From Schmidtea polychroa (taxonomy: Eukaryota): DNA of 64,000 bases. The stretch is taken from NCBI GenBank assembly GCA_044892525.1, contig CM097886.1:26846001-26910000 (forward strand). Reading direction: 5' to 3'. A program made the position numbers and the translations under genes. Positions 24,348-64,000 of the stretch are shown one piece after another (position 1 is the stretch's first letter; each line of letters begins with the position of its first letter). The notes below the pieces were generated by a model. It worked only from the letters and a program-made list of their open reading frames with translations, was not told the DNA's origin and made no database searches.

Positions 24348-25173
24348 TATTTTTATACATTCATATAATTACAAAATTAATGTAATCTTTTAACCAAATA
24401 ATCCTTAAAATTAAAAGACTAAATAGTTTCAATCGCTTTTCTTATGGATTCTAACCTTTTTAATAATTTTTGAATCACACAACTTTTGGTTAAAATATTC
24501 CTTGATTTTTTACAATGCTCCAACACATTCTCGGTTTCTTCAACCTGTGTCCCGCGAAATTCGTAAAATAAATAGATGAATTAAATTTGAAATCTGATAA
24601 AATTCTTGGAACATTTGGATATAATAGTTTTGGCTTTGACTGAAAACGAATATTATGCATATCACTTCCATCGAATAGATATCCATCCTTATTCTTTGAA
24701 TCCTTAACCGTTCTATCTTCTTGTTTAATGTCTCTGTAAAGAAGTATAAAACCATTTCATCTGAAATAGTGGAATATTCTTTGAAACATCTTACTATTCT
24801 CAGTTTTTCAGCTAGAGATATAGTCTTTTATTTATTTTTTGTTTTCATTAGGTTAGGAAAATATCTTTAAAATATAATCTTATATTTTTTCAATTTGATT
24901 TTTGTTTAACAAATCTATATTTTAACTGTTCTTGTTTAATTTTACGATAGATTATGATTTTGTGAATAATTATGGTTTTCTTTAAAAATGTTTCAAAGCT
25001 ATGAATCCACAGGATATATAATTAACTTTTTTTATTTTTTCTCTGGTCCTTGATTTAGTTGAAGTTGTTAAGTGCGCGACAAAACCTGGTGCTCCAATTT
25101 AAATATCTTCCTGTATTTCATACAATTCACTATTATCAAATACATTTGTAAAATTTTAAATTTAAATATTTAG

Positions 25174-25835
25174 GTCACGGGCTTAGCAACGGTGATAGGG
25201 GAATGATTTATAATTTTGATTTGCTAGTACGCGATGTCCTTTCTGATATTGATGATGTCGTTAAAAAATTCGAAACCAATCCGAAACCTCCGATTTTTCT
25301 TTATGGTCATTCATTGGGGGGCCTTATTTCGGTTTATGCAACTTTACAACGCCCCACATTTTTCAAAGGTATTTGTTTGGAAGCTCCTTTTTTATTATTT
25401 CCAACAAACGTCAGTAATATAACTATTTATATGGGAAAGATGGTTAGTGTTTTGTTTCCAAGGATGCCTATTGGCTCTATAACATATAATGATATATCCC
25501 GAGACGTTGAGTATTTGGAAGATTTACGCAAGGATAAATTGAGAATTCATTCTGGAATCCCTGCCAAAACCATAATTGAAATATATAATGCTGTAGAAAG
25601 ATTAAAAGGACTAATGGAAAGTGTTACAACGCCATTTATTATTGGTCATGGTGAGGCGGATAAATTATCTGAAGTAGAAGGCAGCAAACTATTGATGAAG
25701 AAATCTCCAATAGCTGATAAAGTATTTATTCTATATCCGGATGCCAAACACCAAATTAGAAATGAAACCGGAAATGTTTCTTCAGATTTTATAAAACAAA
25801 TTGTTGAGTGGTTGCGCATCAAAATTCGCAATTGA
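25174..25835 (+). CDS. MGLL: MGLL-family copy 1, exon 2 (290 aa total)
   Basis: Acceptor TTTAG at 25173 completes HDHMG-HGLSNGDRG. Nucleophile elbow GHSLG, acid HGEADK, His AKHQI. Confidence 0.92.
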
Positions 25836-34019: not shown

Positions 34020-36994
34020 TTAAGATTGCGGAGCCAATTCGTCCGTTCCAATCCATGGCTTGAGACGGTCGATGCTAACATTCTTTACTTGGTCTCCGAT
34101 TTTGATTTTTACCGTTTTACTGTCATCGGATCTTTCTATGACGTCGTATGGTCCCGTGTACGGATCTTCTAACGATTTCCTGAATTCAGATCGAAGTCAC
34201 ACTCTTTTGCAGTGAACTAATAGTTTGCTTACAAAACTATGTTCTTTTGGTTGGCTTGTTTGTTTGTTATTTAGTTGTGAGTCGATTTCCTCTTGAATCG
34301 ATGTCAACTTCTCTTCGATATCGGTTAATGTTGGTTCACTAATGACAAAATCTCCGGGTAATCTAGCTCGACAACCGAATGTGAGTTGCGCTGCTGATGG
34401 AGACCCATTGGACTTCGTGCAGTTTCTTAGACTGAGTAGAATCTTGGGGAGATCATGAGCCCACATCTTGGAGGAGTCTTCTGATGCGGCTCTTATTGAG
34501 TTTTTCATGGCTCTGTGCCATCTTTCTATCTTCCCATTGGATTGAGGGTGATAGGCTGTTGTTCGCCTCCTTTCGATTCCCATTACCTTGCAGAAATTGG
34601 AGAATTTTTCTGATTCAAATTGTGTTCCTTGATCTGTTATGACAATTTCTGGAACACCAAAGCGACTGATCCACTCTCTTTCAAATGTTCTTATGATCAT
34701 ATCTGCTGTGATATCATATATAGGAATTGCTTCAACCCATGACGTTCCTCGGTCTATCATTGTCATGATATATCTCTTGTTATCGACGCTCGGAAGGGGA
34801 CCCACTATATCTAGATGGACTGTAATGAACCTTCCTTTGGTTTCTATAGTGCCTAAAGGAGCATGTGTGTGTCTTGCTATTTTTGCACTTTGACATCTTT
34901 GACATTGTCTACACCACTCTCTGATGTCGCTTTTCATCTGAGGCCACACATATCTCGACTTGATCAGTTCTATCGTTGGTTTGGATGCTGGATGCGATAT
35001 GTTATGAATTCTTAGAAATTCTTGATGTCGGAATATTTTTGGCAGTACTACTCTGGTTTCCCCCGTAGAATTGTCAATGAGAATGTCATCCGTAGTACTA
35101 CATAACTGGAGACTTGCATTTTTCAGTGTAGATAAGGTCTGATCTTTCCTTTGTTCTTCTTTTAACCTTTCTTTCGTGAATTCGACGAAATTAATTTCCA
35201 CCGTTGATACTTGTAGGTTTTGATTACTGCATGGTCTGGACAAGAGATCGGCGACTACATTATCTTCCCCTTTGATGAATTCGATGGTAAAATCAAATTG
35301 ATCAAGGTATTCGATTATTCGCCATTGCCTTGGCGATGGATCTTTCATATGTCTAGCTCGTAGTAAAGGTTTGTGGTCCGTCATGACTGTGAAATGAGAA
35401 CCGTCTAAAAAATGCTTAAAATGTTTTATAGATAAGAATATTGCCAGTAACTCCCTGTCAAAGGTGGAATATTTCTGTTCGGTTAGATTTAATTTCCTCG
35501 AAAAGAAAGCAATTGGAAATGATTTATTTTCTTCGTTGATTTGACTTAGACTTGCTCCAATTGCTTTAGAAGATGCGTCAGTGCATAGTAGGAATGGCTT
35601 GGACGGGTTAGGATATGAAACGTTGCTGATTTCACGTACCGAATTTTTGGCACTCATGAAAGCGTGTGTATGGCAGTCTTGCCATAAGAGATCTTCCTTT
35701 TTATTGACCGACTCTTGTAACAAGTCATGCAGTGGACTCAGTGTATCCGACAGCCTTGGAATTAGCCAGTGATAATAGCCGATGCCACCAATAAAACGTC
35801 GTAAATCTTGACTGTTAGTTGGCTTCTTTAAATTGCTAATTGCCAACGTGCGTTCTTCAGAGGGTTTTATTCCTTGTTTTGTTAATTCAAAACCCAAAAA
35901 GTTTACCTTTTCGGTTTGGAATTCGCATTTGCTCTGGTTGATTGTGAGACCAGCGGCTTGAAGACTGGCCATCACCCTTGCCACGTGTTCTTTATGCTCT
36001 GCTTCAGTCTTGGAGAATATCAGAACATCATCAATATAGGATAAGGAATGCTCCTGGTGTTCTCGGAGTACGTTGTCCATGTGTCTCTGAAACGTTTGAG
36101 ATGCGTTTCGAAGTCCAAAAGGCATCTTCGTATATTCGAACAATCCAAAAGGTGTTATGACTGCTGTCTTTGAAATGTCTCCGTCACAAATCGGAATTTG
36201 ATGATATGCCTTTTCCAAATCTAATTTAGTGAATACATGAGGGTTGTTTATCTTGTTCAGTAAATCTTGAATTCTCGGAAGTGGATATCTGTCAGGCTGG
36301 GTTATTTCATTTAACATTCTGTAGTCTCCACAAGGCCGCCATGATCCATCCGGCTTCTTAACCACTACTAATGGAGATGCCCAGTCACTCTTGCTTGGCC
36401 GAATCACACCTTCATTTAAGAGTCTGTCAAACTCTTTCTTTGTTGCAACTAATTATTCTCCAAAAAGTGGTCTTTGTCTTTGAGCTACAGGGGAACCATT
36501 GGTGATTATTTGTAGTTTCGTGGTTAATGTGGTTTCTTTGTTGATTGTAGCACAGATCTTGGCACATTGGCTTCTCCGCGCTTCTGTTCTTTCGTTACTG
36601 CTAGAGCAACATATTGATCTGGAATGACAACTAACGTCGATTTTGTGATGGGCCAGGAAGTCTGCACCTAGAATTGGACGAGATATGCCGGCTATAGCGA
36701 AAGACCATATAAATTTAGTTCTGAATCCTTCAATAGTAAATTCAATCGTTTTCTGCCCGTGGTATGTGATTGATGAATTGTTGGCGGATACTAAAGATCG
36801 ATGTTCTCCATTTCTATCAGGCTTGAAACGGTTTGCGGGAAGGATGCTGAGATCAGCGCCTGTATCGATGAGAAAGTCAATTTGTTCTCCATTTATGATT
36901 GCTGGTATTTCGAATATTTGTGAGTTGTTTTGTCCCGAGAAAGAAGATATGATTTTGTAGGTTTCACTGTTCGGGTTCAATGAAACCTTCTCTC
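34020..36994 (-). pseudogene. pol (protease, RT, RNase H, integrase) interrupted by two in-frame stops
   Basis: PR LIDTGAD, RT WRPCGDYR/YIDD, RH TDAS/DRELLAI/DLLSR, IN HHCC plus DIVG/DQG/ERWH. TAA at 36453-36455 lies in PLFGE*LVATKKEF. TGA at 34197-34199 lies in CKRV*LR, after which PYTGPYDV...VSIDRLKP continues to TAA 34020-34022. Confidence 0.93.
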
Positions 36995-37001
36995 GTTTCC
37001 C
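36934..37001 (-). promoter_or_regulatory. Putative -1 ribosomal frameshift signal (G GGA AAC, 6-nt spacer, stem-loop/pseudoknot)
   Basis: Heptamer at 37001-36995 in the gag frame. 10-bp stem AGGTTTCATT/AGTGAAACCT (one G-U). Loop CCCGA can pair with TCGGG at 36938-36934. pol is in the -1 frame. Confidence 0.8.
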
Positions 37002-37885
37002 TGGTTCTCTCTGTGGTTGTTGCTGTTGAAGTTACCGTTTTTGTTGAAGTTGCTGTTTTTGTTGAAATTGTTGTTGTTGTTCCTTGACGATATGTTTGAC
37101 GGTTCGAAATTTTGATATTTCTCTCTGTTGTACTTCCCCGATTGATAGTTGTCGTTCTGATTTGCATTCCATTCACATGGCGGTTGACATTTCATCGCCC
37201 TATGCCCAAATTTACTATGATAAAAACATAACTTACCGGTGTTTTTATTGTTTAATTGTTGTCGTATTGCATTTATCTCTTCCTGCAGTTCCATGATTGT
37301 TCTCGTCTTGTCTCCTACTTCTTGATTATTGCAATATTCGTGTTCAATTGCCTTCACTGATTGACGCTTTGATATCATTATTCTGTCTGCTGTGATCGCT
37401 AATTTCCGAAGGTCCGTCGATGGCATCGATAATAGGATGTCTTGAACAGATCTTGGTAGTAGTCGCATGAATAATTCCCGAGATATAGGACTGTTGAATG
37501 GGTCCATGGATGTGTCTATTCTTTGTATTTGTCCTGTAATGTGTTGAAGCGCTTCTGATGGAGATCGATCTCCCAGGCAGTCGTCTCTCATCAGGTCAGT
37601 TAGTGATATTGTCCTTGATAGTTCAAAACCAGCTAAGATTGCTTCCTTCAGAGTAGTGTATGGAAGTTCGGTTTCTGAGTCCAGTAAGTGTTCGTACTTT
37701 GTTAGCAACGTTGTTGGGAGATTTGAAATTAAATGAAAATACTTTGTGGTCTCTTCTGTAATTCTGGATATCTTGAAGCTGGCCTCCACTTGCTTGAACC
37801 ATAGACTTTGATTTTGAAAAATGGCCGGAATTTTGACCGAGACATGGTCAACTTCGGAGTTTCTGACACCATTTGTAAGACTCAT
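36977..37885 (-). CDS. Gag (302 aa from the only in-frame ATG)
   Basis: KIPAIFQNQSLWFKQVEASF N-terminal motif and CFYHSKFGHRAMKCQPPC (CHCC-type knuckle), followed by an Asn-rich tail. Confidence 0.9.
   Translation of the reverse strand: MSLTNGVRNSEVDHVSVKIPAIFQNQSLWFKQVEASFKISRITEETTKYFHLISNLPTTLLTKYEHLLDSETELPYTTLKEAILAGFELSRTISLTDLMRDDCLGDRSPSEALQHITGQIQRIDTSMDPFNSPISRELFMRLLPRSVQDILLSMPSTDLRKLAITADRIMISKRQSVKAIEHEYCNNQEVGDKTRTIMELQEEINAIRQQLNNKNTGKLCFYHSKFGHRAMKCQPPCEWNANQNDNYQSGKYNREKYQNFEPSNISSRNNNNNFNKNSNFNKNGNFNSNNHRENQGNERRFH
37861..37871 (-). promoter_or_regulatory. Primer-binding site TGGTGTCAGAA (tRNA-Leu(CAA)-type 3' end complement)
   Basis: Lies 2 nt downstream of the 5' LTR. 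11-nt match to the ...UUCUGACACCA end of tRNA-Leu as I recall it. Confidence 0.75.
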
Positions 37886-37994
37886 AGTTACAAAAACATT
37901 CAAAACATTTATTTATTTCACAAACACAATATTCAAACAAATTAACTTGTTTTTTTTAAATATTGTTTTAAAATAATTAATTAATGTCCCAACA
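37874..37994 (-). repeat. 5' LTR (121 bp)
   Basis: TGTTGGGAC...GAGTCTTACA, contains AATAAA, identical to 33889-34009. Confidence 0.97.
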
Positions 37995-38085
37995 CTATGT
38001 CATTTTGTAAATTTGGTGTATAATATTTATGACTTTTCTTTTTTAAAAATCCTTATAAACTGATAAAATTAATTTTTATATTTAG

Positions 38086-38747
38086 GACATGGATTGAGTG
38101 AAGGAGAAAGGGGCATGATCTATAATATTCATTCTTTAGTACGCGATGTTCTTTTAGATATTGACGAGGTAATGATTCAACAAAATCTAAATACAAATAT
38201 TCCTATATTTATTTATGGACACTCAATGGGTGGGCTCATATCTGTTTTCGCTAGTCTCGAAAGAAAGTCATTTTTTACTGGAATGTGCCTAGAGGCTCCT
38301 GCTTTATCAATTCCAAAAGTGGTTGGAAAAGGAACTATTTTCGTGACTAAGATAATGAATAAAATTCTCCCTTCAATATCTATTGCTAAACCCAATAATA
38401 ATGATATATGTCGAAACTTGGAGTGCATTAAAGAAATTGAGAATGATAAATTAGTTATTCACAGAGGTCTTCCAGCAAGAACAGCAAAGTCTGCGATGAA
38501 AGCTCTTCGACAACTGAAATCACTAATAAAAGATGTTGACACTCCATTTATTATTGGACATGGAGATGCTGATAAACTGTGTGAAATTGTTGGTAGTCAT
38601 TATTTTGTGGAAAATTGTTCAGCAACTGACAAGTCGTTCATAACGTTTCCTCACGCTAAGCATCGGCTTCGAGATGAAATAGATAATGTTGATGTGGAAT
38701 TTACCTCTAAAATTATTAATTGGATAAATGAGAGAATGGAAAAATAA
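38086..38747 (+). CDS. MGLL: MGLL-family copy 2, exon 2 (289 aa total)
   Basis: Acceptor TTTAG at 38085 completes HDHRG-HGLSEGERG. GHSMG, HGDADK and AKHRL triad motifs are intact. Confidence 0.92.
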
Positions 38748-43630: not shown

Positions 43631-45044
43631 CAGTGGCGTAGCAAAGAGGTTCCCAAAGACAAACAATATTTTTTTGGAAATGTTTTATTTTGATCGATTT
43701 CTGATAAATATATTTTAAAATAATAGTTGTTGCGATATAATTAATTATCTAATTCATTTATTTGTCTGAAAAAATATGTTATAAAAAGTGTTTGCAGCAA
43801 ATCAATAAAATTTCCTCGTACACAAAACATTCTTTCGTCTTCCTGAACACTTTACTTTTCTAAGATTGTGATATATTTTTATTTTTTTAACGAAAAGTAC
43901 AGAAAATGCAACAACTGAGACACTCAGTTTAATTCCGTACGTTCTGGAGTTCAAAAATGAGTAGTGGATATAACACCCTCCCGGGCACGCCTACCCTGGA
44001 AAATCTACCCCCAGTCTCTTACATTATTGTAATAATGCCTCCGATTTTTTACGCTTTTACCCCTTTAATACCCTACATTTTCAGCACAAACCCAAGGTGC
44101 CAAAGGGAAGCTGAAGGAAACCTCTCAAAACCTCTCGAAACGGTGTTATTTGCTCAATATTAAAGCATCCGAAACTAGAAAACTCCAATAACGGATGCGC
44201 CTTCAGCTTCCCTTTGGCACCTTGGGTTTGTGCTGAAAATGAAGGGTATTAAAGGGGTAAAAGCGTAAAAAATCGGAGGCATTAGATTTTCCAGGGTAGG
44301 CGTGCCCGGGAGGGTGTTATATCCACTACTAAAATGTTGATTATTTAAAATTCAATAATAATCTTCAAATAATACCTAAATGATTATTCGTGGATTCCGC
44401 ATATTTCAGAACGAATCCAGTCTAAATGCAGTAAAATTTAAAGCGTAACATAGCCTGTGTTTCTATTTATCCCGAAAAAGTGTAGAAGTGTAGTTTATTA
44501 GTTACTATTCATAATATGTTATAGAGTATTTTAAGGTAGGTACTGCATTCTAGGGCATACCGGTTGTAATTTTCCTGCCGATCCGGATAGATCCAGTTAA
44601 ACATAGTCACACAAATTTGTATTTTAATATTAATTGTAGATGTTTTCTTTGATTAAAGGTCGCTAGATAGAAGCCTAAGAGTTAGAATATGAAGACATTA
44701 ATCGACGATCGTTAAACTAAAATTACGAACTTGTTTCGAGTTTTCAGTTTGTTGTTTAATGAATGTTGAATATCCACGAATCTTTTGTTTTATGTCTGCC
44801 GATTTTTATACCGTATTAACTACAGATATTTTTATGTTTCATTTTAACTGTTAAAAACACGTTTTTTTGTAAATTGGATCGGTCTTTCGCGTTGGTGGCG
44901 ATACCGATTAATCGATTTGGTCAAAATTCGGCTATACCCTACTGCATTCTATTATTATTTATATTATATTCTTATTACGAGTATACTTTATATATTGCTG
45001 TATTTTTTGAGTGGGGAATGCCAGTTATCCTCGCTACGCTATTG
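43631..45044. mobile_element. Old non-autonomous hAT-like element
   Basis: Ends CAGTGGCGTAGC / GCTACGCTATTG (10/12); 8-bp flanks GGTGACAC / GGTAACAT differ by two transitions. Confidence 0.6.
43960..44330. mobile_element. 371-bp foldback element with AGTAGT termini and 6-bp TSD (miniature Polinton/Maverick-like)
   Basis: 131-bp arms (43960-44117 including a 27-nt indel; 44200-44330) with one substitution. AAAATG is duplicated at 43954-43959 and 44331-44336. Confidence 0.75.
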
Positions 45045-47313: not shown

Positions 47314-50300
47314 TAGGGTTGTTAATATCGGTTTTTCGAGCAATCCGATTATCGTTTGTATAAATCCGATTTTAAACCGATTATCGTTTGCACTTTGCAT
47401 AACCAAAGCTACTTACATTATTACTATTCACGCACGTGTATAGTATAATTAGTTTTATTCAAAGTTTATACCACACACAAGGAGAATATGAACTGACTGT
47501 TTATGTAGAAAGTTAAAGCATATAAGTAAATTTGTTTTCAATTTCTTCGGTAATTTTCCCTGTATATACTAAAGTATAAATCAAAATAAAACTTTCCGGT
47601 GCTGCGGCGGCCTTATTTTAAAATTAAACATAAACATATCGAAACCATAGATATCAAAAACAAAGATTCCAAAGTGTAAACATTTAAAAGTAAGTACTAA
47701 ATTCGATTTTATTTTTAAATATCAGACAAGTCCTGGTTCATATTCAAAAAGACCAAAGATTCTGCATGATCTGGAAGGAGCCGGTTACGAAGCTTGGTTA
47801 TCAGACGTCCAGTGGCCGAAAATAATCGTTCCGATTGCACTGAGGTTGCAGGAATGCATAAGAACTTCCGGGCAAGAATAGCTGTTTTGGGGAAAAGTTT
47901 CATATTATGTTTCCACCACTCCAGGGCTGTTTCACTTGAGTTTGTCGACCATGATGATTTGACGTAATATTCAAAGTCGGATTCCTCTGGCGCCTGTTGT
48001 GCTGCACTATCACCAAGGAGAAACATAACTGCATCATGATTTGGTCGTGATCTTTTAGTTGGTGGGATCATGTTATCTTCATCCCGACTCGTCTTCGGCT
48101 GTTCGGGGCAATCTGGCAGCTGTCTGATGAGATGACGGACATTTTCATACGCCAGCTTTTTGAAATCGTCCGGAAATCCAGGAAGATGCTTATACATCGG
48201 ATCGAGAATTGATGCAACAACGCATTCGTTTTTTGCTGTTTCATTATTTTCTAATCCAAAACGACGTGAAATATTCTTAGCAAGATCTCTCTTAAATTCA
48301 CCCATAATGTCAGAATCTTCTTCTTTAATGGTTAAATGATTTTTCACGAGTCCCCATAACATGGGAAAAACACAAGAGGCTGATGGCTGGCTTTCGGCTG
48401 ACATGACGAACGTCACGATCTGCAACGCTTTTAAAACCGGGAGCAATTCAGTCATCAGTTGCCAATAATCGTCCTTCATGCCCAACGTTTTGGCATCGTT
48501 CAATTTCACCACGTTTTTGTCGCTCAATACTGCAACTACTGGCCATCTCAGTTCTACTAGTCGTTCAAACATGTCATAGACGCTGTTCCAACGAGTCTTA
48601 CAGTGCTGAATAAGTTTTAGTGGCGTTTTATCCTTGTCCATGGACAACTGTCTTTTCAGGAGCTCCCCCGTTGCCATTGGGCTATGTGAGAAATGTCCGA
48701 CTAGTCGTGCTGCAGCTGATATACATTTGGAAATTTGATGATCCGTGACAACATGGGAGCCCATTGCATTATTGATGCAAAGTTGCAATTTATGCGCCGC
48801 ACAGTGAACGTCAAACCAACCATTGAGATTGCCTGCATGATTGATGTTGGATGCACCATCATGGACACATGCAACAATTTTTCTTTTATTGACCATTCAT
48901 CAGCTATACTACATAGATGGTCAGCAATGACGGCTTGTGTGTGGCGTTGAGTCATCAGAATTGTTCCAAGAACAGGCGTCATCATATTCCAGTCTGTATC
49001 AATGTAGCTTGCAGTGAAACTGAGATAAGCTTCATTGGTGACACTAGTCCAGATGTCGGTAGTGATCGCAATGTCCTTGACATTTTCATGGATATATTTC
49101 GACATTTTGACCACTAAATTATTTTTCATTGCTGTTAGTCGTGCTGTCATCGTCTGACGACACGGAGGACGATATCCTGGCTCCACTATCGCCATCAATT
49201 CACGGAAGGATTTCGATTCCACGAGCGAAATTGCCAACATATTTTCGGAAATCAATCTCGCAACAGCAGCCGTAATTTTTTCCTGTTTACTACTCGGACA
49301 ATTTCTTTGTGTTGTAATCAATGCAGTCAATCGTGTTTGAGTATTTGAAGATGTTGTTAATCCACCATGTTTGCTACGCAAATGTGCATGCAAACCAGTC
49401 GTAGTACCTCCACTCCTACTTATTTGCTGTGCACAGAGCTTACATTGTGCCATCGTCGCCGAAATTTTATCAAAATTGTCCCAGACGTCAGACTTATTTA
49501 TACGGAAACCCATAAATTTAAACTGATTTTGTATTGATTTAGATAATATAAAAAATGTTTATTGAATATTTCGTAATATTCAAACTAAACCGCAATTTTC
49601 AATTATATGGATTAATAACAGCTACTACAAGAGCAACTAACTGAATGAATGGAAATTATATAACAGTTTATATGTTTATAGTAGATTTGAACCATGGATT
49701 GGACTTTCCAAAATCTTGTCATAAATTAAAATCCCGAAAATCAATTTACTTCGACCTGAGCAGCCTCTTAGACATTGTCAAAAGATCAACAAACTGAATA
49801 AATTTGAGAATGGTCGTCACCCAAACTTGAAGTTTATCCTAGTGTCCAACTCTCTTCCATATTTCAATGGGTAAACAACTAAACATTATGATTCGAGGAA
49901 TGGCACATGTCTTTCGATCTCTTTACATCTGGCTTTCATGAAGATGATGCGGTATGCAATTCAGTTTATTCTGGTTTTAAGTTAAAACCAGAATAAACTT
50001 TTAACCGGTTCGCAGATGCAAGATATCAGATTGCAAAATAGACCTTCACGGACTAAACACAAAATCGCCGACCTCGGCCACATCTAGTCCCTGTCAAGGG
50101 GGTTAATAGCTAAGCTTCTGTTATGGACTGCAGTAATCAAATCTTTGGTGGCCGATTTCGGCAACAAATATCAGGTTGCCAAACAAAACCGGCAAAATGC
50201 AAATACTAAAACACACAACCACAACCTTGGCCTCAGCTGGTCCAGATTAAAAGATTTAATGGGCACAGTACCTGTCAGGGGCTGTATAAAACAAATCAGC

Positions 50301-51420: not shown

Positions 51421-51968
51421 AAAAGTTATTTTTTAAACCGTTGGTGTTTAACCTTTTGAAATTTTTTGAAAGCAGATGGGCGCATAAAAAAGTTTACCGC
51501 ATTTAAAAGTTTATTTTCATTATGATATATAAATATATGCAAAATGCAAAAAGTTAAGCATAAGACCAAAATATTCGCTAAATAAAAAATTATGGACTTA
51601 TGTAAAATAAAAAATTAAATTGTAAAATTGCATATAAACTTTATGAGCAGTTTTAGAATTTTATATTTTATTAGTTACATACATTTTTTGTAAAATTCAA
51701 ATCATGTTGGCCACTACTGTTTTAAACAAAAGAATATAAAAAAGATATAAATAATATATATTTATTGAAAAAAAATTTATTTTAAAATTATTATTAAAAT
51801 TTTTTTTTTAATTTAAAAATTATAACTTTTTTCTCCTGAATCAAAATTTTAATAATATTCTCGCAAATCAGCAGAGAGTTGAGTCAACTGACTACATTAT
51901 GGGAATATGTTAAAGTCTTATTCATATTATTTATGGACCTTGGTTTTTTTTATTATTAGTTTTCTTAG

Positions 51969-52627
51969 GACATGGTCTTAGTGAAGGTAATCGAGGAATG
52001 ATTAATAGTTTTGATTCATTGGTGCGCGATGTTTTACTAGACATCGATGAAACATTAGTTAGAGAAAATATTCCACAGCAGGTTCCTTTATTTCTTTATG
52101 GTCATTCTTTGGGCGGTTTAATCTCTATCTATGCTAGTTTACGACGAGATAGGTTTTTCAAAGGATTATGCTTAGAAGCCCCATTACTCATATTCCCTTC
52201 GAAAATTGGAATAATAACACCTTCATTCGGAAAACTTATAGGCAGATATTTTCCTACATTCGAATTTAATAAGTTAGACTATGACGACATATGTAGAAAC
52301 AAGGACTATGTTCATACTTTGTATGGAGACCATTTAAGAATACATTCCGGTGTACCTGCAAAAACTGCTATGGAAATTTATCGGGCAGTTGATTATTTAA
52401 AAGGCTGTCTGAAGGAAATCTCCACACCATTTATCGTTTGTCACGGAGATGCCGACGAGATTGCCGATATACGAGGCAGTGAATATTTGATGGAAATATC
52501 TCCCGTTCAAGATAAAACCTTTATCATCTTTCAAAGAGCGAAACATCAACTAAGGATGGAGATCGAAAACGTGAATATTGAATTTTCTAAAAATATTCTA
52601 GAATGGATTCTTGCTAGATGTCTTTGA
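51969..52627 (+). CDS. MGLL: MGLL-family copy 3, exon 2 (289 aa total)
   Basis: Acceptor CTTAG at 51968 completes HDHRG-HGLSEGNRG. GHSLG, HGDADE and AKHQL triad motifs are intact. Confidence 0.92.
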
Positions 52628-58094: not shown

Positions 58095-58393
58095 AAATTA
58101 ATAATTAATAAAATAAATTAAAAAATATGTCTGATTGAAGCAGGCTAACATAACATAAATAACACAAAAAGTTTATAAAAATCTTAATAAAAACATCAAA
58201 TAAACAATAAAGTAAACACACATTTAATTAAAAAATAAAAACAAAAATAATTAAAATCAGTAATGCAAGAAGTAGCAAAAAGAAACATATTGAAACCAAA
58301 GAATTTAAGTAACATGGATTAATTAATTTAAACATTTTACATAGAAATTAAATTAAATAAAAACTAAATTAAGATAATTAAATTAAATAAATA

Positions 58394-58950
58394 GGTCTTG
58401 TGACATTTCATCACGCGACAACCTGAGATCTTTAAGAGGATTATTTGAAGCCTTGGCTCGCTGTAATGTTCTTTTAAGAGATTGTTTTTTCGCAAGTCCC
58501 AGCATTATTTGAGGAGTTATCGTTTCGTTTACTGACCCAATAATAAAATTTAAATTTTCCGCAGTAGTTAATGCACGGTTTTTCATTTCTTGAACTGCAG
58601 TTCTTGCTAACAAACGCTCTATATTACCAGTGTGATTGAGAGCTGAATTAATTTTATTGACCACTCTGCTATCATCAGTTGTTATTATAGCCTTACAACC
58701 AAACTTTGGATAAAACTTACATCTCCACTGAATAGTACCATCTTTGTTGTTTCGATGCTTATTATATTCAAAATTTTCAAAAATTACTGTTTGTTTTCCC
58801 CTTGAAGAAACTCCAAATTCAGATGAATCCATTTGTAATCGTTTAATTAATAAAATTATATTTATTAATTAAAAATATATGAGGTGATAAGTTGTCGCGT
58901 GATAAAATGTCAATGTGATAAAATGTCGCGTGATAAAGTATCTGTACACC
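58394..58950 (-). mobile_element. Mutator/MULE internally deleted element retaining the FLYWCH N-terminus, 557 bp
   Basis: Ends GGTCTTGTGACATTTCATCACGCGACA / reverse complement GGTGTACAGATACTTTATCACGCGACA; 8-bp flank AATAAATA on both sides. ORF 58832-58383 has SSRGKQTVIFENFEYNKH...QWRC...GCKA...NH. Confidence 0.8.
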
Positions 58951-62211: not shown

Positions 62212-62703
62212 TTACAAATAGACTTTGAAACTGTGCTCGATTTTTTTCCTGCAAGTAGGGCATAATATATTCCCATGCTCATTCATCAGATTATCTGCGC
62301 AAGCTTTGCAACAGCAAACATGACCACATGGAATAAATACATTATCTGGAACTGTATCTAAGCAAATAACACATTCAGGACCAGAGTTCATTTCCCTAGG
62401 TTTAGGTGAATTAACTTTTGGTAATTCTTGTCGAATAGATTCTTCTCTGATTGGAATATACTGGGTATCCTTAAGGGTTGGTCGTTTGATGTCACCGGTC
62501 GGCAATGTCGAACCTGCTCCTCTTATATCCAAGTCCAAAATATTCGGAATAGATGGCAGAATTGGTAACGGATATCGAGTTATTTTATATAGCCCAACAC
62601 TGGTTAAGTTTGTAAGACTGCAATTCATATCAGTCGCTATCCAATAAAATGAACCAGCGGATACTTTCCCTAATTCTTCAAATCTTTCTCCATTAACTGC
62701 CAC
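62212..62703 (-). CDS. Terminal exon of a RING-HC (C3HC4, IAP/Neuralized-type) E3 ubiquitin ligase; upstream exons not identified
   Basis: Acceptor TTTGCAG|GTG at 62704/62703 (phase 0). CVICLD...PCGHVCCCKAC...CPTCRKKI at the extreme C-terminus. Confidence 0.85.
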   Translation of the reverse strand: MAVNGERFEELGKVSAGSFYWIATDMNCSLTNLTSVGLYKITRYPLPILPSIPNILDLDIRGAGSTLPTGDIKRPTLKDTQYIPIREESIRQELPKVNSPKPREMNSGPECVICLDTVPDNVFIPCGHVCCCKACADNLMNEHGNILCPTCRKKIEHSFKVYL

Positions 62704-64000
62704 CTGCAAATTTAAAAATTTATAATTTGTTTCAGTATTTGATTTCATTAAACAAGTGTTGTCTAAACTTTTTTGAGCCACAGCACACTTGGCTGAATTT
62801 AAAATTTTCGCGGCACACCTAAATTTTTTTTTGCTTTATTTGCAATTTTTTATTGCACTTTTACTAATCTTTTAATAAGAAATGAAAAACTTATTTACTT
62901 GAAATAAATTTAATGTAAAAAATTTTAAATTTAGAAAAATTAGTGAATGAAAAATTCATAAAAAAAAATTCATAGTTAATGAGATTTATGTGCTTGATGT
63001 TCCGAACAAATAAGTTCCAATAGTGGTGGAATTTTTGACAAACTCTTAAAATTTAGATAGTCAATATTTCTAGTAAGAAATATAAATATTATTGTAAACA
63101 AATTTCGCACTTAATTGACTGATTAACATTTAAATTTGAAATAACTGTTAAAATATCCACAATTCAATTTCCTTTTATTAAGTTGTTTGGAAAAACAGGG
63201 TTTTTTTGACTTTTTAAAAAAATTTCACGGCATACAGTTTGGACAACACCGCATTAAAATATAGTTCGAAATATTTCGAACCAAACTATGAAACCCAAAA
63301 ATTTGATATTGTGAAAAATCAATTTTAATTAAATTTTGTTGAAAAAGTAAGATTATTAAGTTAAATTAAATTTCAACGGTTTACCTTTTAAAATAGTCGA
63401 ATCTCTGTGTTTAGACATGTTTGGTTATTTTAAATTAATGCTAGGCTTTATTTTTAGATATATTCCTAGGAGCAATGATCAGGCAATTATATACATTAAA
63501 AAAATATTTTAAAGCTGCGCATAAATTATCTGAAAGCCTGATTGTAGACTACTTAAACGATTGACTCATTTGTGAATGAAAAAAATGTCATATTTTATAT
63601 GGGCCGAGGAAAACGATATAACAGCTGCTAGATTTAAAAGTCTGTAACGTAATATTGAAGATGGATTGAATAACTAACTGTTGTACAATGTACATGGGTT
63701 TTTAATAATCTAATACCATACGATAATGAAAGCTTTCATTTGGTATTTATATTTTAATCTGCTTTGTTAAATTGCCAATTGGAGTGTATAAAAATTATTG
63801 AAATGAAGTTAAATAATTAATTTTGATTGACTATGAATCAGTAAAGATATCAATGTTTTTTTCATAGATGAATTTTCAGGCAGCCTTTCAAAATCATCGA
63901 AAAATCGAGATTATCAAAGAAATATCGATATCTTTACTGTATCGTAGTTAATTTTTTAATAAATATAATTTCAATTGAGTATAAAAAGTAAGTTAAATTG

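Follow-up and report, generated by a model that had tools for sequence, protein, structure and literature searches.

Non-autonomous Polintons (Mavericks) of several kilobases are present in Repbase, and the ends of adenovirus are said, in work attributed to Wang in 1991, to be repaired by inverted repeats. To our knowledge, neither the way in which Polintons replicate their ends nor their exit from the chromosome has been demonstrated. Polintons carry 5'-(AGT)2//(ACT)2-3' ends, and intact vertebrate Polintons measure 12.7-24.6 kb with an average TIR of 402 ± 276 bp, according to the available sections of PMC8097293. Adintoviruses whose virion module is of the Mayetiola class and bears PLA2 are described in the part of PMC8502044 at hand. 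MITEs are presented in an excerpt of PMC1636448 as defective, high-copy, and homogeneous elements. Among protein-primed systems, template switching in phi29 gives subgenomic molecules, as stated in a section of PMC4974454, and copy-back or snap-back defective genomes are recorded for RNA viruses in the literature extracts available. In protein-primed genomes, re-initiation and end repair are commonly explained by a panhandle, a model that awaits direct proof even in adenovirus and PRD1, according to the pertinent passages of PMC11886824.

The window analysed here is the whole stretch of 64,000 nucleotides from Schmidtea polychroa, and it contains a single-copy, gene-less Polinton derivative of 371 bp, hereafter the mini element. 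Taken alone, the mini element is a dead-end, single-copy relic. The significance of the locus rests mostly on two features of the full-size relatives that were found by way of it, namely an inner inverted terminus that co-varies with the adjacent end, and full-length elements whose two ends are unlike.

The 371-bp element and its insertion site

The mini element occupies positions 43960-44330 of the window, with the termini AGTAGT and ACTACT seen on sequence inspection, and is flanked by one copy of the hexamer AAAATG on the left (43954-43959) and another on the right (44331-44336). It interrupts an older, abundant, and unclassified host repeat with approximate limits at 43651-44552, for which at least 39 other matches with 75-82% identity were found (40 of 152 candidates scored). 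All 19 paralogous copies of this repeat lack the mini element. The site is crossed cleanly in 15 of them with the hexamer present once, and the other four have small local deletions or divergence near the site. Since the hexamer is single at the empty paralogous sites, the AAAATG pair is a true target duplication (TSD), and the chance of such a 6/6 match is about 6e-4. The length of 371 bp, the AGTAGT ends, and the exact 6-bp TSD given in the first-pass annotation are confirmed by the sequence together with the empty paralogous sites.

The left arm (43960-44117, plus strand) corresponds to nt 1-158 of a Polinton TIR, starts with AGTAGT, and shows 73-82% identity to the TIRs of 14-15 kb Polintons. 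Its terminal 27 nt (43960-43986, plus strand) are the stretch that recurs as an inverted repeat inside each TIR of the full-length relatives. The 82 nt after the left arm (44118-44199, plus strand) represent TIR nt 159-240 and run collinear with the module loop of the relatives in alignments to L002, L003, L004, L006, and L010. The right arm (44200-44330, minus strand) is the inverted TIR from nt 158 to nt 1 and ends in ACTACT. The junction (44199-44201, plus strand) consists of a 2-nt microhomology, CC, and lies 1-3 nt into the start point of the relatives' inner inverted terminus. As a whole, the mini element is composed of TIR nt 1-242 and inverted TIR nt 158-1 joined via CC, and its nt 1-242, the whole spacer included, align collinearly with the TIRs of the five closest relatives.

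The arms are 158 nt long on the left and 131 nt on the right. A single substitution and a 27-nt indel bordered by TA distinguish them, both of which the earlier annotation had stated. The left arm shares with the relatives 27 nt (44006-44032, plus strand; TA microhomology, borders ± 2 nt) that the right arm lacks. Both differences are derived in the right arm, because the relatives match the left arm at both. The annotation had also described an 82-bp spacer with a hairpin of its own. The hairpin is present, but the spacer is not a separate part, being a portion of the TIR, and the stem is at chance level: a stem of at least 7 bp arises in 200 of 2000 spacer shuffles. The GCATCCG/CGGATGC hairpin, which is not kept in the five aligned relatives, was rejected as a functional element.

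As single-stranded DNA, the mini element folds into one long hairpin of -171.5 kcal/mol (z = -32.5), and none of 100 shuffles was as stable. The GC content of the arms is 46-47% compared to 30% for the window. The longest stop-free frame is 67 codons; the mini element has no genes and shows neither the pPolB, integrase, ATPase, and capsid nor the 13-25 kb of an autonomous Polinton. A comparison with Rfam gave three matches (MIR447, MIR6027, and snR98), all under the gathering score, which are attributed to the long hairpin.

Parts of the mini element occur in contigs of six public runs from two studies, and one of these holders may be the assembly's own sample. The left junction between host and element is bridged in two runs of one study, a spacer contig is present in five of the six runs, and the other junction contigs span just 28-30 letters, below the bridging threshold. 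The junction of the 27-nt deletion is covered by contigs in none of the six runs, though the contigs collapse both arms and drop variants. The single 158-nt arm in these contigs, in which both arms are collapsed, has A in four runs and T in two. A contig joint that skips the mini element in two runs may stem from the host-repeat paralogues, and contig depth does not equal copy number.

The first-pass annotation had regarded the mini element as a MITE-sized parasite of a Polinton and expected many copies of ~370-400 bp with different TSDs. The corresponding search was run and gave no second copy: the mini element is single-copy, and its terminus occurs nowhere else in the assembly. Its first 29 nt, searched genome-wide with at most one mismatch, were found at its own two ends only, and its terminus is at least three mismatches away from all 22 sampled terminus types. 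The pattern searches for end pairs used exact 13-nt ends and pairs of up to 475 bp, a design that ends mutated in the first 13 nt escape. They returned the mini element alone at 276-375 bp, no pair at 376-475 bp, no pair at 115 bp or less, and two pairs at 116-215 bp (L103 and L104, discussed below). An internal query of the mini element gave nothing nearer than 70-84% identity (11 of 11 candidates scored).

The surroundings of the mini element in the window include coding stretches and other mobile elements. Alpha/beta-hydrolase (Pfam Hydrolase_4) stretches are found at 25152-25835, 38073-38747, and 51914-52627, about 13 kb apart; the three are likely tandem paralogues, and the mini element lies between the second and the third. 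An LTR retrotransposon with protease, RT, RNase H, and integrase is present at 34197-37912, and a hAT transposase with a BED finger at 47715-49558 (minus strand). Further frames of the window contain FLYWCH (58383-58868) and RING (62212-62835) domains.

Full-size relatives and their inner inverted terminus

A TIR search of the 781-Mb, AT-rich assembly gave at least 43 matches (40 of 82 candidates scored), and many of them form inverted pairs 12-40 kb apart. Six elements of 14-15 kb were taken for gene content, with 52 of 89 stop-free frames scanned. All six encode pPolB and a double-jelly-roll capsid, and the rve integrase, the A32 packaging ATPase, and a PLA2-like domain were each found in five of the six. 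The TSD is a perfect 6 bp in 11 of 14 end pairs of the relatives, a 5/6 match in one, and absent in two. These long relatives are Polintons by the criteria given in the available sections of PMC8097293, with the PLA2 mark described in the part of PMC8502044 at hand. The earlier proposal that the ends are of Polinton origin, and that long elements with like ends would encode pPolB, integrase, and capsid, is borne out: elements with TIRs of this type (72-82% identity) carry these genes as well as the ATPase and have 6-bp TSDs. In line with a non-autonomous Polinton, the mini element has (AGT)2//(ACT)2 ends, a 6-bp TSD, and a TIR homologous to those of elements with pPolB and integrase; no element with matching ends that could act as its parent or helper was found in the genome, of which the assembly may be incomplete.

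The relatives vary in several respects. The closest family (L002/L011, L003/L007, and L004/L008) has long TIRs of 555-1339 bp, which continue into AT-rich sequence where coding regions start elsewhere, and TIR length thus varies by extension beyond the module. The polymerase frame opens with a C2H2 zinc finger in L065:544-3801, L061:734-2881, and L067:579-2402. The PLA2-like domain lies upstream in the integrase frame of four elements, and in a fifth the two domains are on neighbouring frames with a stop between them. The ends of L009/L010 (G000:C2:124665686 and 124694039) are 28 kb apart and have the same flank in inverted orientation, matching over at least 1.6 kb, with no TSD; this is possibly a large palindrome or inverted duplication.

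An inverted copy of the end's own terminus (23-24 of 24 nt) is present in 25 of 28 TIR ends, ending 238-272 nt inside, and absent in three; the 28 ends had been picked solely by likeness to the mini element. Genome-wide, 128 such terminal modules were found compared to 0 for a reversed control. The module measures ~250 bp with a loop of ~190-215 nt. The covariation set consists of 46 distinct oriented modules (64 found, two unoriented) with 22 terminus types. Positions 11-27, which were unconstrained by the search, pair in 39-46 of the 46 modules, and position 28 in only 18. Moreover, two to four Watson-Crick pair types occur at 11 of the 17 testable stem positions (11-27) in this set. Between an inner copy and its own end there are on average 0.41 nt of difference over the 22 types, compared to 4.76 nt when permuted (0/10,000), a comparison uncorrected for relatedness. 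The inner 27-nt copy co-varies with the adjacent terminus in the full-size relatives. The stem formed in all four modules folded, on both strands. By pairing with the inner copy, each end is predicted to form a replication hairpin of its own. In IMG/VR, there were no matches to the module pattern and no capsid relatives.

Both ends are available for nine long elements, of which two are clearly unlike-ended and the other seven have just scattered private changes. The two are L098/L099, the same as L106/L107 (G000:C1:199333781-199348655), and L087/L088, the same as L108/L109 (C1:77222960-77237646), with TIR identities of just 70% and 86%, respectively. Both are full-length, with one gene set and perfect TSDs. 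In both, every inner copy matches the terminus beside it with 0 mismatches and departs from the opposite one at 5 or 2 positions. The match of inner copies to their own end suggests local end hairpins and not an end-to-end panhandle, although the ends could have become unlike by recombination or conversion after integration.

Possible origins of the mini element

The mini element is probably, at a rough probability of 0.55, a copy-back product of a protein-primed polymerase that was inserted in trans by the integrase of a full-size Polinton. Synthesis from a terminus would run to about nt 242 within the TIR, and a template switch would then lead to nt 158 of the strand being made or displaced, where the 2-nt microhomology would allow re-priming. 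Copying back to the end would give a self-complementary strand with two intact ends, which second-strand synthesis would convert to an integration substrate. A helper integrase would insert this product, and no multiplication would have occurred since. The mini element has the hallmark of copy-back, a terminal segment followed by an inverted and shorter terminal segment at a microhomology, in that nt 1-242 are collinear up to the relatives' inner terminus and are followed by inverted nt 158-1 via CC. Also counted for copy-back are a second case, L104, and the uniqueness of the mini element's exact terminus in the assembly.

This second TIR-only insertion (L104:1501-1675; G000:C3:90516823-90516997) is 175 bp long and has 48-bp arms with one mismatch and the TSD AGAATA. 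It is single-copy and ~93% identical to another full-length family, L067/L068. The insertion is independent of the 371-bp mini element and belongs to a different family. Its junction lies near nt 120-127, away from the start of the inner terminus. A junction at the foot of the stem was considered as a general rule and dropped, as it holds for the 371-bp mini element and fails for L104 (one of two). Larger internally deleted relatives also occur: L103 is a shortened end of a long element, and L058:380-3066 is a 2.7-kb element with both modules, 338-bp TIRs, and the TSD TTTATT.

Copy-back before integration and a later microhomology deletion between the TIRs would produce the same structure with the TSD kept, and sequence alone cannot separate them. 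In the case of deletion in place, a full-length Polinton would have integrated with its TSD, and host microhomology-mediated loss of the interior, from nt 242 of the left TIR to nt 158 of the right TIR, would have left the mini element as a scar that was never mobile. This account has a considerable chance, though one short of even. It fits the single copy of the mini element, the 2-nt microhomology at its junction, and the occurrence of internally deleted relatives such as L058 and L103, and a lone parent is plausible because there are many low-copy end types (22 terminus types in 46 modules). Less easily accommodated are the coincidence of the junction with the foot of the terminal stem and the number of small derivatives: two independent ones of at most 475 bp for modules that correspond to ~64 elements. 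With uniform breakpoints in a 15-kb element, such an outcome is expected at ~0.2% per deletion, although the count is raised by selection in favour of small size. The better survival of small insertions under selection likewise counts against inferring copy-back from two mini elements, and TIR-internal breakpoints are seen partly by construction, because the searches covered end pairs of up to 475 bp and required the 13-nt ends to be exact.

Two other explanations are far less probable. A MITE-like satellite family that depends on Polintons for its replication and mobility, as proposed by the first-pass annotation, would agree with the two intact ends, the Polinton motif, the true TSD, and the abundance of helper-type elements, and the arms, being one substitution apart, would make it recent. 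It is nevertheless very unlikely, given that a second copy was not found and that L104, likewise single-copy, belongs to another family. It is barely credible that the ~250-bp terminal module is itself a mobile or invertible unit, either cut out at its inner terminus or inverted in the manner of the parvovirus rolling hairpin, with the mini element as a variant solo module. Polinton ends on both sides and a junction at the inner edge of the module are compatible with this, whereas the right arm of the mini element is an outer-type 131-bp TIR and not the 27-nt inner copy. In the part of the 128 modules that was covered, a TSD was found around none of the 26 tested (best 4/6), on which count modules that are mobile on their own were rejected. 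None of the 50 modules placed is flipped, and a rolling-hairpin (AAV-type) end was discarded for this lack of flip and flop orientations.

In a displaced single strand of the full-size relatives, the inner copy is predicted to pair with its own end, and the resulting local duplex would serve as origin and as template for end repair. Such a duplex would replace the 15-kb end-to-end panhandle, and its stem foot would be the site of the mini element's junction. The tight covariation and the sharp edge at nt 27 would follow from templated repair. A broader account is more tentative, and we hold it to be somewhat doubtful as a whole. In this Polinton group, the 27-bp inverted terminus of every end may fold locally and provide a duplex origin and repair template without a panhandle, by which unlike-ended genomes could replicate and integrate. 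Mis-priming may in turn throw off copy-back genomes of 175-370 bp, which would be among the smallest Polinton integrase substrates, and the mini element would be a fossil of one of them.

The co-varying inner terminus provides a specific and testable alternative to an end-to-end panhandle, and the existence of unlike-ended full-length elements would be accounted for by it. In addition, if the mini element and L104 were integrated as such, they would limit the sequence that integration requires at one end to ~48 bp. For annotation, it follows that TIR finders will take the ~250-bp modules for MITEs or misplace the borders of elements.

Comparison with known systems

Neither sub-kilobase Polinton derivatives nor an inner inverted terminus appear in the titles or abstracts of the literature searched, a scope outside which the founding papers (Kapitonov and Jurka 2006) lie. 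Both are likewise without mention in the available text of PMC8097293, PMC10748475, PMC8502044, PMC3014272, PMC6431247, PMC5499653, PMC11886824, PMC4974454, and bioRxiv 10.1101/2025.02.07.637071; supplementary figures of TIRs in PMC8097293 may be relevant here. The newness of the TIR-only mini element and of the inner inverted terminus is provisional.

Similar to copy-back genomes, the mini element consists of one end followed by its inverted complement with a microhomology at the junction. In contrast to them, it is fixed in a host chromosome by integration. The ends of the full-size relatives presumably resemble the hairpin ends of AAV and other parvoviruses in that the terminus can be folded onto an inner inverted copy. 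They differ from these in the uniform orientation of the loop (flipped in 0 of 50 modules), in its length of ~190-215 nt, and in the protein-primed polymerase.

The mini element shares with MITEs its small size, the lack of coding capacity, the bounding TIRs, and the TSD. Unlike MITEs, which exist in many homogeneous copies, it is single-copy, and its ends are those of a self-synthesising element and not of a cut-and-paste transposase. With Polintons, it has in common the end motif, the 6-bp TSD, and the homology of its TIR to that of the gene-bearing elements of 14-15 kb. The inner inverted terminus of these relatives sets them apart from the Polintons as described in the available sections of PMC8097293, where no such feature is mentioned. 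The mini element itself departs from Polintons in being gene-less and, at 371 bp, shorter than one average TIR as given in the same sections.
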